Part shown: in pieces, positions 17,686 through 21,985 of the stretch
Layout of the letters: every line of letters begins with the position of its first letter
How positions within the stretch are numbered: the first letter of the stretch is position 1
NCBI GenBank assembly: GCA_030606485.1
Contig: JAUWGH010000002.1
Coordinates: 1-32,000 of the forward strand
Length of the DNA: 32,000 nt
Origin: Promethearchaeota archaeon
Lineage (GTDB): Archaea > Asgardarchaeota > Lokiarchaeia > Sigyniarchaeales > SOKP01
Direction of reading: 5' to 3'
Program-made: the position numbers and the translations under genes
Notes under the pieces: model-generated
Database searches by the model: none
What the model saw: the letters and a program-made list of their open reading frames with translations, nothing else
What the model was told of the DNA's origin: nothing

Positions 17686-18588
17686 TTGTCCTTAAGAATT
17701 GATTTTTTACGCCATTTTATTTTATTAGCTGAAGAGAAAAGTTTTTCTAATGTTGCAGATAAAATTTCGATAACTCAAAGCGCTTTATCTCAACAAATTG
17801 AGCATTTAGAAAATTATTTTAAATGTAATCTTATTGATCGGAGTACAAGAACATTCAAATTGACTAAACAAGGCGCGATTTTATTAAAATATTCAAAAGA
17901 TATAGTGTCCTTATTTGATAAAAGTCAAAAAGAAATATTTAATCTCAGTAAAGAACTTGTGGGAACAATATCCATTTCTGCATCAACTATTCCCGGAAAT
18001 CATATATTACCAAAATTTATTGCGGATTTTAAGAATAAATATGCTAATGTTACAATCAATATTTGGATAAAAAATAGTAAGCGGAGTTTAATAGATCTAA
18101 AAAATAAGCAGGTTGAATTTGCTGCAATTGGGAGTTTTATAAAGGAGGACCAAGAAAAATTTGAATATTTTCCAATTTTTACTGAGAATTTAGTTTTTAT
18201 TTGTGCTCTTGATCACGACCTGGTTAGAATTAATAAAGGAAAAGTCCTTTTTGAGGATTTAATTAAATATCCTTATATTTCCCGTGAAGATGGTTCTGGT
18301 ACAAAACAATTTGCTATGGAAAATTTAGAAAAGTATGATAAATTAAATCAATTGTTAGAAATGTCAAGCAATGAATCAATAATTTCTGCAGTAAGTAAAT
18401 CAAATGATATATCAATCATTAGTGAGATGAGTGCCAAAAAAGCAGAAGATGCAAAACTAATTAAAATAATAAATATTTCAGATATACCCTTTTTAAGAAG
18501 AGAATTATTTTTTATTAAAAATAAGGGAATAAAATTAAATAAAGTTGCAATAAAGTTTTGGAATTTTATTTATGACAATAGAGATTAA
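17686..18588 (+). CDS. LysR-type transcriptional regulator (CysL/selenium-metabolism-associated type)
   Basis: N-terminal HTH (SFSNVADKISITQSALSQQIEHLE...LIDRSTR...LTKQG), ASTIPG, and REDGSGTK typical of the CysL-like binding domain. Confidence 0.92.
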   Translation: MSLRIDFLRHFILLAEEKSFSNVADKISITQSALSQQIEHLENYFKCNLIDRSTRTFKLTKQGAILLKYSKDIVSLFDKSQKEIFNLSKELVGTISISASTIPGNHILPKFIADFKNKYANVTINIWIKNSKRSLIDLKNKQVEFAAIGSFIKEDQEKFEYFPIFTENLVFICALDHDLVRINKGKVLFEDLIKYPYISREDGSGTKQFAMENLEKYDKLNQLLEMSSNESIISAVSKSNDISIISEMSAKKAEDAKLIKIINISDIPFLRRELFFIKNKGIKLNKVAIKFWNFIYDNRD

Positions 18589-18600
18589 CAATATTAAATC

Positions 18601-18639
18601 TATTAATTTTTCTAATAAATATGAAGAATAAAATTAATA
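18601..18639. promoter_or_regulatory. Candidate LysR operator upstream of dsrE-tusA-selD
   Basis: TATTA-N7-TAATA at 18601-18617 plus degenerate GAAGA-N7-TAATA at 18623-18639. The 19 bp at 18601-18619 are the exact reverse complement of 17618-17636. Confidence 0.6.
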
Positions 18640-18713
18640 AATCTTCTTATTTTTATTTAATGTAATTAAATTTGATTAATTTGAATTAAAAATTATATAG
18701 GGAATTATAAATT

Positions 18714-19061
18714 ATGGTTAAAATTTCGGTTATGATAATGGAATCACCATATGGAAGGGAAAAACCATATACTGCTCTTAGGTTTGCATTAACTGCGATA
18801 TTAGATGGTAATGATGTAATACTTACTTTAATGCAAGATGGAATATATGTTGGCTTGAAAGAACAAAATCCAAATGAATATCCTAATCATTTAGAATATT
18901 TAGAAAGTGCGATTTCAGAAGGATTGAAAGTAATTGTGTGCGGAGTTTGTTGTAAATCTCGTGGGATTAAGCAAGAACATTTGGTTGAAGGTGCCAAGAT
19001 TGTTGGAATGCATGAGATTGTTCAGGCAGTAGGTGAAAGTGAAAATCATATTACATTTTAA
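18714..19061 (+). CDS. DsrE/DsrF-like sulfur-relay protein
   Basis: ESPYG..ALRFA..LMQDG and VCGVCCKSRG (conserved Cys region); 115 aa. Confidence 0.88.
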   Translation: MVKISVMIMESPYGREKPYTALRFALTAILDGNDVILTLMQDGIYVGLKEQNPNEYPNHLEYLESAISEGLKVIVCGVCCKSRGIKQEHLVEGAKIVGMHEIVQAVGESENHITF

Positions 19062-19079
19062 AGTATTAGAGGGATTAAA

Positions 19080-19313
19080 TTGGATTCAGATGATGAATTA
19101 AATGTAGAAGGAAAATCATGTCCCATGCCCTTATTTTTAACGAAGAAAAAATTAAAACCTATGGGATCTGGAAAAACTTTGAAACTTATTGGGGATTTTT
19201 TACCAGCTAAAGAAAATATAGTCGAGTTTTTAGAGAAGGAAGGGCATGATATTTTGGATCTTCAAGAAGTGAATGATCCGTATAAATTTATTATTTACAT
19301 AAAAAAAGCTTAA
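19080..19313 (+). CDS. TusA/SirA (YedF-like) sulfur or selenium carrier
   Basis: LNVEGKSCPMP (CPxP motif); 77 aa; GAGGG SD before the TTG. Confidence 0.9.
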   Translation: MDSDDELNVEGKSCPMPLFLTKKKLKPMGSGKTLKLIGDFLPAKENIVEFLEKEGHDILDLQEVNDPYKFIIYIKKA

Positions 19314-19389: not shown

Positions 19390-20415
19390 TTGAAAAGTAA
19401 AGAAGAGTATCGATTAACTAAACAGGTAAAGATTTTCGGTTGATCATGTAAATTAGGTCCAAATAAATTAAAGGAGTTATTAGAAAAAGTCGGGCTTGGT
19501 GGTCTTTCTGAAGATTGTTCAATTACTTCAGTTCCTAATACAGACTTATTATTGCTTCAAAATATCGATATATTTACTCCTATTGTAGATGAGCCTGAGA
19601 TTATGGGAGAAATCGCTGCATGTAATGTAACAAATGATGTTTTTGCAATGAATGTACCTGAGATACATGGAATGCTTGTTTTCCTAGCAATGGATACAAT
19701 GATGCCCATGGAGGTTGCTGAAGGAATTATGAATGGAATAATCAATTTTATGAAAAAGATTAATTCAAAAGTATTAGGGGGGCATACAATTTACTGCGAA
19801 TGGCCACTTATTGGCGGAGAAGCGTCTGGATTTGTGGAAAAAGATAAACTAATCAGAAAGCAAGGTCTAAAAGAGGGTGATAAATTAATAATCACTAAAC
19901 CCACGGGACTTCAACCAGTAATGGCTGCTTATAGAATATTAAAAAATACTCCAGAAATCTTAGAACTTTATTCAACTAATGAGTTAAAAAGTTCAATAGA
20001 TTATGCCATTGAGTTAATGATTACATCAAATCAAAATGTTGTAAAAACAATACATTCCTACGATGATTTTTCATTTGTTCATTCAATGACTGATGTAACT
20101 GGTTTTGGACTTGCAGGTCATACTAGAGAAATGCTTGAGGGTACAAATCTTTCCGCGCTAATTGAAAAAGTTCCGATCATAAAATATGCAAAGGAACTTT
20201 CTGTAGATTTCAATTATCACCTTGATTCATGTGAGGCTTCAGAAACTGCCGGAGGAATGCTTCTCGCTATAAATCCTGAGAATATTGAAGATTTTTCAAA
20301 CCGCTTGACTAGTAATAATATACCAAATTGGTATGTTGGGATAATCGATAAAAAAGAGCCCGGATTAGTAAGACTCTCCAAAAATATTGAATTTGAGGAG
20401 GTTTTAAAAAAATAA
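19390..20415 (+). CDS. selD: Selenide, water dikinase (selenophosphate synthetase) with selenocysteine at codon 18 (UGA 19441-19443)
   Basis: AGGAGGT SD then TTG 19390, in frame with the track ORF: MKSKEEYRLTKQVKIFG-U-SCKLGP, matching the SelD catalytic C/U-x-x-K. Also DIFTPIVD, GGHT, DVTGFGLAGH and ETAGG motifs; 341 aa. Confidence 0.95.
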
Positions 20416-20494
20416 TAATGATGACTATGAAATAAGCTTAAACACTTGTAAGTGGGTGCTTATTGAGTTTTTCACCTGTGAGGTGCCATCATTA
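20416..20494 (+). ncRNA. Eukaryote-like SECIS element in the selD 3' UTR (cis-acting RNA)
   Basis: AUGA (20427-30) / GA (20465-66) core, AAUAAGC/GCUUAUU helix, unpaired AAA (20440-42), apical CACUU/AAGUG mini-stem, outer UAAUGAUG/CAUCAUUA helix. Confidence 0.82.
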
Positions 20495-21985
20495 AAAACC
20501 ATTAAGCTCCTTAATAATTAATCTTAAAAGGTTATATATTAATCCCACATCAGAGATTTTTAATCTTTCACTCGGCGAATGCAAGCTTTCGATTGTTGGA
20601 CCTAGAGAAACCATTTGAAGACCACTTATCCTAGTGCTAATCATTCCAGTCTCTAATCCACCATGAATGACATTAGTTATTACTGTTTTTTTTATAAGAT
20701 TCTCATATTGCTTAACAACATATTTTAAGAACTTAGATTCTAAATTAGGTAACCACTCGGGTAACACAGGCTTTAAAAACACTTTCCAACCCCCTAATTT
20801 CCCTAATTGTTTCATTGAAACACAAAAAGAATCCAATTCACTTCTTAATATACTACGCGGATAAAGCCAAATAATTTCGTCATTTTTTTCAGTATCTATA
20901 ATAGCAAAATTGTTCGAACTTTCTACAAATCCTTCATAAATGTGAGACTTTTTAAGAACACCATTAGGGATTAAATGAGCGGTAGATAATAATATCTGTG
21001 AACCTTCTTCTGAAAGATATTTGTCTGGAAGAGATTGTTTATATTCGATTTTTAAGTTAGACTCAAATTTTTCATAATAATCCTTAATCGATGCAATTTC
21101 TTTTTTAATTAATTTATCAAATACCTTTTGATCTTTTGATTTAATACCAAATTTTGCTATAGATTTAGCAGGTATGACATTTCCTTTAGTACCCCCTTGC
21201 CATTTACAGATATAGATTTTTATTTCTTGGGTAAGAATTGATAATATTCTACCTACTATTTTAATTGCATTTGCTCTTGGTAAATGAATATCTTCTCCCG
21301 AATGCCCACTTAATAATCCTTGGCATGAAAGTTCAAAAAATTGAAGCTCATTACTTTCTTCAGGGGAAATCCAATTAAATTTTTTTGAAAATCCCACCCT
21401 TCGTCCACAAACAGAACCAATTACAACTACTTCGGCAGGTCCTCCATCTAGATTAATCATCAATTTACTTTTTATATTAAGAGTTTTAGGATCTAGATGA
21501 GTTGCTCCATCAAACCCATCTTCTTCATTCACAGTAAATAATACTTCAATGGGTCCATGAGAATCTATCGATTTATCAATTAGGATTGCTAAAGCAAGTG
21601 CTAAGCCAATACCATTATCAGCTCCTAGAGATGTTCCATCTGCGTAAACCCATTCATTATTTTCTTGAATACGTACTGGAATTCCTTTATTGAAAAAATC
21701 AAATCCTTCAGGTTTATCTGTTTCACATACCATGTCGAGGTGAGCTTGAAGCATTATTGATGGAATTGACTCTTGTCCGGATGTCGCTGGTTTTTTGATT
21801 AGGATATTTCCAACTCCATCTTGATAAATCTGAAAATCATTATTAATTGTTTTGCCTGATTCTAATATAAAATCTTTTATTACTTCACGGATTATTTCTT
21901 CATGTTTAGAAGGTCTCGGAGTTTTAGCAATAATATTTTCAAAAATATCCCATACAATTTTAGGTTCTAAATTTTCCAACACCAT
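20492..21985 (-). CDS. pepD: Aminoacyl-histidine dipeptidase (M20C peptidase)
   Basis: LQAHLDMV, GTSLGADNGIG, EEDG, NLDG, GHSG, HGGLE and HSPSE motifs. Confidence 0.92.
   Translation of the reverse strand: MVLENLEPKIVWDIFENIIAKTPRPSKHEEIIREVIKDFILESGKTINNDFQIYQDGVGNILIKKPATSGQESIPSIMLQAHLDMVCETDKPEGFDFFNKGIPVRIQENNEWVYADGTSLGADNGIGLALALAILIDKSIDSHGPIEVLFTVNEEDGFDGATHLDPKTLNIKSKLMINLDGGPAEVVVIGSVCGRRVGFSKKFNWISPEESNELQFFELSCQGLLSGHSGEDIHLPRANAIKIVGRILSILTQEIKIYICKWQGGTKGNVIPAKSIAKFGIKSKDQKVFDKLIKKEIASIKDYYEKFESNLKIEYKQSLPDKYLSEEGSQILLSTAHLIPNGVLKKSHIYEGFVESSNNFAIIDTEKNDEIIWLYPRSILRSELDSFCVSMKQLGKLGGWKVFLKPVLPEWLPNLESKFLKYVVKQYENLIKKTVITNVIHGGLETGMISTRISGLQMVSLGPTIESLHSPSERLKISDVGLIYNLLRLIIKELNGF

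Follow-up and report, generated by a model that had tools for sequence, protein, structure and literature searches.

The SECIS element that follows the selD gene in the analysed window, a stretch of 32,000 nucleotides of DNA from a Promethearchaeota archaeon, is most probably the type II arm of a conserved three-way junction resembling a k-junction, and its overlap with the stop codon of the convergent pepD gene a by-product of a local insertion or deletion. Judged from sequence comparison, the third arm of this junction is real, conserved throughout the phylum and apparently undescribed hitherto, and it refines the known SECIS model without adding a new kind of element. Asgard SECIS elements have been proposed as a link between the archaeal and the eukaryotic ways of decoding selenocysteine. 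Models that use just the core, the upper stem and the apical loop miss about one third of the conserved element, and the third arm supplies a well-delimited target that pull-down, probing and mutagenesis work could address, together with a testable structural hypothesis, namely that of a k-junction which would keep the kink without SBP2. With regard to the window itself, selD would be a genuine selenoprotein gene followed by a SECIS of a known type, and the comparison gives no support to the pepD overlap as a means of regulation.

The selD locus and its predicted SECIS element

The selD gene, coding for selenophosphate synthetase, extends from position 19390 to position 20415 on the forward strand of the window and encodes, from a TTG start to a TAA stop (20413-20415), 341 residues that comprise the AIRS and AIRS_C domains of Pfam. 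When TGA is translated as U, an in-frame Sec-UGA appears at 19441-19443 (codon 18) within the motif FG-U-SCKLG. Orthologues of selD were found in 40 of 41 related genomes, and nearly all of them contain exactly one in-frame TGA. In many members of the family, selD occurs as a tandem pair, each copy being provided with its own Sec-UGA and a complete three-way SECIS (loci L007, L009, L051, L057, L061, L065, L066, L068, L083, L089 and L101). Directly upstream of selD and on the same strand (17686-19313), genes for a LysR-type regulator, a DsrE-like protein and a TusA-like protein could form, together with selD, a candidate sulfur/selenium relay module. The gene convergent to selD (20492-21985, reverse strand), taken from the list of open reading frames and recognized by the Pfam families Peptidase_M20 and M20_dimer, encodes a pepD-like peptidase of the M20 family; it is a neighbour of the SECIS junction and no component of the element.

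The host genome amounts to 3.75 Mb distributed over 13 contigs. Its selB gene (C2:193372-194265) scores 263.8 bits, compared to a curated cut-off of 242, and lies 3.4 kb from a tRNA-Sec candidate (C2:189906-190018) scoring 47.1 bits, compared to an Rfam gathering score of 47. The candidate measures 113 nt, to be compared with the 91 positions of the Rfam model, and may contain an insertion or an intron; run with default settings on the host genome, aragorn reported 15 tRNAs, tRNA-Sec not being among them, although the Rfam tRNA-Sec model finds one. DNA runs containing the selD/SECIS stretch originate from cold-seep and marine sediment. The nearest named relatives are metagenome-assembled members of the Promethearchaeia (Lokiarchaeia), and the cultured MK-D1, which belongs to the same order as the host, possesses a SelD protein of 44% identity, its selD sharing the layout described here.

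The whole element occupies positions 20416-20494 of the forward strand. Its outer helix, i.e., the lower or C-like helix of the junction, consists of the 5' strand UAAUGAUG (20416-20423), the first base of which directly follows the selD stop, paired with the 3' strand CAUCAUUA (20487-20494), the last three bases of which (20492-20494) double as the pepD stop. The 5' junction strand ACU then leads to the AUGA core (20424-20430 as a whole, AUGA at 20427-20430), which begins 11 nt past the selD stop and is continued by the seven base pairs of helix II, formed by AAUAAGC (20431-20437) and GCUUAUU (20458-20464). The apical part, of type II, comprises the unpaired AAA at 20440-20442 and a mini-stem associating CACU (20443-20446) with AGUG (20451-20454) under a UGUA loop. 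On the 3' side of the core, the GA at 20465-20466 is the partner of the GA of AUGA, with which it would form tandem G.A pairs, and the linker GUUUUU (20467-20472), including a run of five U at 20468-20472, connects the core to the side hairpin CACCU-GUG-AGGUG (20473-20485), which constitutes the third, T-like helix. Read in the register of the family, this side hairpin consists of a stem of 4-5 bp capped by a pentaloop UGUGA of the class YGYRA. The element of the window contains a spacer of 1 nt (C20486), and its side hairpin carries a U-C mismatch at the base, two features that count against the junction reading. Every coordinate and every base that the initial annotation had given for these parts matches the sequence.

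Folding of 20416-20494 by RNAfold, one of the checks proposed along with the initial annotation, returned the three-way junction exactly as drawn, both as the MFE structure (-19.5 kcal/mol) and as the centroid, and the junction persists upon addition of 20 and 36 nt of flanking sequence. The fold signal of the single sequence is modest (z = -2.08, 9 of 200 shuffles folding equally well), and the above-chance status of the junction is due to the comparison with its relatives, beyond the single-sequence fold. Four in-frame stops succeed one another at 20413-20424 (TAA TAA TGA TGA), the last three of which make up the 5' strand of the outer helix; a terminating ribosome would therefore sit on the junction and open it.

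A distinct SECIS located downstream of the Loki selD (SPS) gene, resembling the eukaryotic type II but with a shorter stem and an extra apical stem, was described by Mariotti 2016 (PMC4989117), where the existing SECIS tools are also reported to fail on Loki genes. The type I and type II 'eSECIS-like' models of Huang, Xiao & Zhang 2024 (PMC11227280) were built from the core, the upper stem and the apical region, type II being the main form on selD genes. According to their type II rules, a core (A/G)UGA...(G/A)A flanks an upper stem of 7-15 bp, above which come a bulge of 4-12 nt with unpaired A's, a mini-stem of 2-8 bp and an apical loop of 2-6 nt. The selD element conforms to these rules with its AUGA (20427-20430) and GA (20465-20466), its 7-bp stem, the unpaired UUAAA and GGU, a 4-bp mini-stem and a 4-nt loop. 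In addition, it is found in a 3' UTR, near the stop codon of a gene with a Sec-UGA, exhibits compensatory changes among its orthologues, and occurs in a genome that contains both selB and tRNA-Sec. The GAA_A bulge between the lower and upper stems, which according to Huang 2024 marks, together with G/C pairs in the upper stem, the methanococcal and Methanopyrus elements (eaSECIS), is absent from both the fold and the sequence of 20416-20494. No Rfam family matches the element at the gathering score over the whole window, and no SECIS family was found up to an E-value of 10 in the region 20300-20620, in agreement with the tool failure on Loki genes reported by Mariotti 2016. As initially annotated, the type II-like, eukaryote-like Lokiarchaeota form, and not the methanococcal one, fits both the text of Mariotti 2016 and the rules of Huang 2024. 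The element is, as a prediction, the SECIS of the selD mRNA, which would enable UGA codon 18 to be read as Sec, and it belongs to a kind already published.

Conservation of the third arm in selD orthologues and other Asgard SECIS elements

The comparison relied on the selD loci of 40 relatives and on 80 further loci gathered from public genomes. A plain MAFFT alignment (A1) of 17 family-level selD 3' UTRs, nearly gap-free and unfitted to any structure model, displays invariant columns for the GA of AUGA, the apical A's at 20441-20442 and three side-hairpin positions, one of which is the loop G; in the 3' GA, the A is invariant as well and the G nearly so. The AUGA/GA core, the lack of which in orthologues had been put forward as a ground for abandoning the SECIS reading, is accordingly present throughout the 17 sequences as far as its GA and its 3' A are concerned. 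When the four-helix structure is laid upon A1, 90.2% of the cells pair, compared to 29-48% with partners slid; double changes affect 18 of 23 pairs, and the observed score was reached by none of 500 shuffles. From the MAFFT alignment A2, likewise not fitted to the structure model, RNAalifold recovered the same junction de novo, with compensatory changes in 17 of 20 pairs.

A covariance model built from the selD elements recovers a copy behind selD at nearly every locus, and behind both genes where selD is duplicated in tandem. Applied to the host genome, model R1 gave 90 bits (E = 2e-20) for the element of the window, which is the only strong match among the best 150 of 1541 candidates. Among 86 distinct selD elements, 93.6% of the cells pair, double changes are found in 19 of 20 pairs and no shuffle out of 500 matches these values, it being understood that the large alignments (A4, A9) were fitted to the covariance model and lean towards the structure, and that the sequences behind the selD and vhuD covariation counts are related and not independent. 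The outer helix is paired in 94.8% of the cells, with double changes in four of its five conserved pairs, and the side hairpin in 95.1%, all five of its pairs covarying; the seven pairs of helix II and the three counted pairs of the mini-stem also covary. The outer helix and the side hairpin, for which covariation had been proposed as a decisive check, thus covary in the 86 elements, and RNAfold, RNAalifold and covariation concur in supporting the claimed three-way junction. One part of the claim has to be narrowed, inasmuch as the inner five pairs of the outer helix (UGAUG/CAUCA, 5' strand 20419-20423) are conserved family-wide but the outer three are limited to the nearest relatives. G.U pairs account for 56 cells in the 86 elements; on the opposite strand these would be A.C mismatches, which assigns the structure to the sense strand of selD.

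In the selD elements the side hairpin is short and rich in G+C, and its loops follow the form YGYRA, the most frequent being UGCGA (18), UGCAA (15), CGCAA (10) and UGUGA (8). In 82 of 83 selD elements the side hairpin passes into the outer helix without any spacer, compared to the single nucleotide C20486 in the copy of the window. In nearly all selD orthologues the 5' junction strand reads N3 followed by AU; as to the 3' linker, GAAUU prevails among the relatives. The stem CACCU/AGGUG was also considered as a mimic of a Shine-Dalgarno/anti-Shine-Dalgarno pair, an idea that was dismissed on the ground that covariation has turned the stem into unrelated sequences in other families.

In the initial annotation, the extra branch was regarded as special to this one element. 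Instead, it turned out to be a general architecture of Asgard SECIS elements, encountered in the genome, in the order and in other families. Type I lokiSECIS, associated in Mariotti 2016 with the hdrA-vhuD, vhuU and PrxL genes, were sought in the genome by a strict pattern scan and by locus-wise cmsearch; the first loose scans, yielding 916 matches and then 455 compared to 242 in the control, had been dropped as too unspecific for an AT-rich genome. The strict scan gave 15 matches, compared to 2 in the reversed control. The 9-bp stem and the 11-nt loop that are canonical for type I occur in five of the 15, and these five follow three hdrA-vhuD pairs, an operon for a NiFeSe hydrogenase and a gene for a 51-residue membrane protein. 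Together with the selD element they make six, and in all six the MFE fold consists of a lower stem, a SECIS arm and a side hairpin, the loops of the latter being mostly YGYRA-like. In the vhuD SECIS of 30 related genomes the junction layout is kept and the stem sequences differ; in a set from more than 20 genomes, aligned to the model and made of related sequences, all eight lower-stem pairs covary, 86.8% of the cells pair and the score is equalled by none of 500 shuffles. In alignments that mix type I elements (A5, A6, A8), MAFFT does not bring the side hairpins into register.

Beyond the family, 20 selD 3' UTRs were sampled from five other Asgard families. By eye, an outer helix and an abutting hairpin can be drawn in all 20, the loops including CGCAA, CGCGA, UGCGA and UAGCA. 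The junction is recovered by a strict parse in 10 of the 20, compared to 0.25% of shuffles, and by a loose parse in 15 of the 20, compared to 20% of shuffles. The scaffold shared with the type I lokiSECIS thus runs through lower stem, core, linker, side hairpin and again lower stem, but type I differs by a 9-bp stem, an 11-nt loop ending in AG and the lack of a mini-stem, and its linker past the core is usually CU or AGAA instead of the GAAUU of the selD type II. In some genera of the family, selD itself is followed by a type I SECIS in which the lower stem and the side hairpin are retained (L014, L016, L021, L022), and it appears that the apical form has switched there upon a constant scaffold.

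A loop that is conserved while its stem covaries is typical of a recognition hairpin, and the side hairpin is carried by all the selenoprotein mRNAs found in the genome. These features would suit an independent site for a regulatory protein, placed in the internal loop of the SECIS and serving for example in selenium control, without any part in a kink-turn structure. That 82 of 83 elements lack a spacer, and that the hairpin has a fixed place opposite the kink, rather suggests that it is structurally integrated, and we hold the independent site to be quite unlikely; it nevertheless overlaps the recognition-surface part of the junction reading, and computation cannot separate the two.

The 51-residue protein deserves a separate mention. 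It is a single-pass membrane protein ending in GGG-U-C-stop, encoded outside the window at C1:355016-355171 (equivalent to L037:157-312, reverse strand), with a type I three-way SECIS beginning 36 nt downstream of its gene. Residues 1-49 are 92-98% identical in three relatives of the genus, and the (G)n-U-C end and the SECIS were confirmed in one of them. No Pfam family matches the protein, and it is absent from the selenoprotein families named in the text of Huang 2024 and of a 2026 review. It is a candidate for a new small selenoprotein.

Transcript ends and the overlap with pepD

Oligo-T tracts serve as a termination signal in archaea. A run of at least five T (T5+) occurs inside the element in 2 of 79 distinct selD elements, and within 150 nt downstream in 62 of the 79, at a median distance of 33 nt; being rare inside and frequent downstream, such runs indicate that transcripts normally include the whole junction, and selD transcripts probably run through the whole element. 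The run of five U in the linker (20468-20472) is peculiar to the genome of the window and might, as a possible termination signal, stop some selD transcripts short of the side hairpin and of the 3' half of the outer helix. As a conserved terminator this run was rejected, relatives carrying GAAUU at its place. In one family of the order (L028, L030), the side hairpin bears a GGUAA loop and is followed at once by T7-8, the lower helix looking minimal; in that form the transcript may stop right after the third arm.

The junction takes up the 3' UTR from the stop codon onwards and closes it, a position that could also be accounted for by a 3'-end module made of the outer helix and the side hairpin, acting in termination, processing or protection from exonucleases, and merely enclosing the SECIS with no part in the decoding of Sec. 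A T5+ run within 30 nt of the element in 30 of 79 relatives, directly past the lower stem in several order-level relatives, would be in keeping with such a module. In the window, however, no U run directly follows the hairpin on either strand. Hairpins with YGYRA loops are not enriched genome-wide (36, compared to 42 in the reversed control), on which count the side hairpin was rejected as a general 3'-end motif, yet it is present in six of the six SECIS found. Its conserved loop and its fixed position, 2-6 nt past the core GA and in direct contact with the lower helix, point to a role within the junction, and a 3'-end module is in our opinion improbable.

The overlap with pepD is a matter of the window sequence itself, in which the outer helix has the pepD stop (TTA on the forward strand, 20492-20494) within its 3' arm. 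In a relative of the same genus, the SelD of which is 90% identical, about 350 bp separate the element from pepD (L002:1130-1420, reverse strand), and the pepD product ends in ...NGIA* compared to ...NGF* here. The breakpoint of this difference (20495-20500 in the window) falls within the last pepD codons. A second relative of the genus contains the start of the same spacer sequence, and in more distant relatives unrelated sequences follow an unchanged junction. The overlap noticed in the initial annotation is present in the sequence but it is not conserved, and it is best read as the by-product of a local deletion or insertion that would have replaced the last pepD codons as well.

The competition of antisense pepD mRNA with the folding of the junction, as suggested initially, has no comparative support, the overlap being absent from the same-genus relative; it is possible as a local physical effect and is not the purpose of the extension. 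The stronger proposal, that the extension couples selD and pepD through a convergent antisense RNA opening the outer helix and thereby tuning Sec insertion, finds in its favour the pepD stop inside the 3' arm, together with the fact that the first T-run met on the reverse strand past the pepD stop (the complement of A7 at 20406-20412) lies beyond the element, so that a pepD transcript could span it. Against it stand the gap of about 350 bp and the different pepD end in the same-genus relative, the other relatives that keep the junction next to a different downstream sequence, and the five other SECIS of the genome that possess the junction with other neighbours. Such a coupling appears extremely unlikely.

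Proposed mechanism and comparison with known systems

The AUGA/GA cores of eukaryotic SECIS elements form a kink-turn-like motif, and we know of no SECIS-binding protein in Asgard archaea. By its topology, the Asgard SECIS would correspond to a kink-turn with a third helix inserted in the non-bulged strand, that is to a k-junction-like arrangement. Coaxial stacking of the side hairpin and the lower helix would produce a single uninterrupted rod with the YGYRA loop as its cap, and the SECIS arm would kink away from this rod, the third arm stabilising and fixing the kinked geometry. The conserved YGYRA loop could then act as a second recognition surface for a stand-in for SBP2, the candidates being an L7Ae-type protein, aSelB or some other factor; no SBP2 is reported in Asgard archaea in the text of Huang 2024 (PMC11227280) and Sun 2021. 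A wider reading, tentative and in our view rather doubtful, would make k-junctions of all Asgard SECIS elements, with the YGYRA helix docking the binding factor or the ribosome, and the internal loop of the eukaryotic SECIS a remnant left after takeover by SBP2. If true, it would provide a structural intermediate and an RNA bait for studying the transition from archaeal to eukaryotic Sec decoding.

With respect to the k-junction layout, the side hairpin follows the 3' GA in the secondary structure and precedes the 3' strand of the lower helix, as expected. The bases required for tandem sheared G.A/A.G pairs are invariant or nearly so, with the proviso that sequence cannot show non-Watson-Crick pairing. 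The contact between the T-like and C-like helices involves 0 unpaired nt in 82 of 83 elements, which permits stacking, and 1 nt in the copy of the window.

Compared to the k-junction of the TPP riboswitch (Wang, Daldrop, Huang & Lilley 2014, PMC4005666), the Asgard element is likewise a three-way junction based on a kink-turn, in which GA/GA stands 3' to the loop and the third helix abuts the C helix, as coaxial stacking requires. The functions differ, a riboswitch on the one hand and a recoding signal on the other hand. The junction strands are longer here, with 5 nt before the G.A pairs and a 3' linker of 5-6 nt; the three-dimensional geometry may therefore differ, and the likeness is one of topology only. 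A link between SECIS elements and k-junctions was found in the literature texts solely as a citation in Huang 2024, where a k-junction paper is cited for the GA_AA pairing and the region below the core is called 'internal loop and lower stem' only.

In relation to the selD lokiSECIS, alias the Asgard type II, the element of the window shares the same 3' UTR site, the AUGA_GA core, the 7-bp upper stem, the unpaired A's and the mini-stem. The region under the core is treated in the text of these papers as 'internal loop and lower stem' or left untreated, and a hairpin or junction below the core is mentioned in none of the main texts of Mariotti 2016, Huang 2024, Sun 2021 and the 2026 review. The statement of the initial annotation that the junction lies outside the canonical SECIS model agrees with the absence of the third arm from the text of Mariotti 2016 and Huang 2024. 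Here, the 3' strand of that 'internal loop' consists of a conserved, covarying hairpin with a YGYRA loop.

With the eukaryotic type II SECIS, finally, the element has in common the AUGA...AA...GA logic, the kink-turn-like core, the mini-stem, the location in the 3' UTR and a helix I under the internal loop. It differs by a helix II of 7 bp, shorter than the eukaryotic one (Mariotti 2016), and by its third helix, the eukaryotic consensus, as presented in the text of Huang 2024, being composed of two stems.
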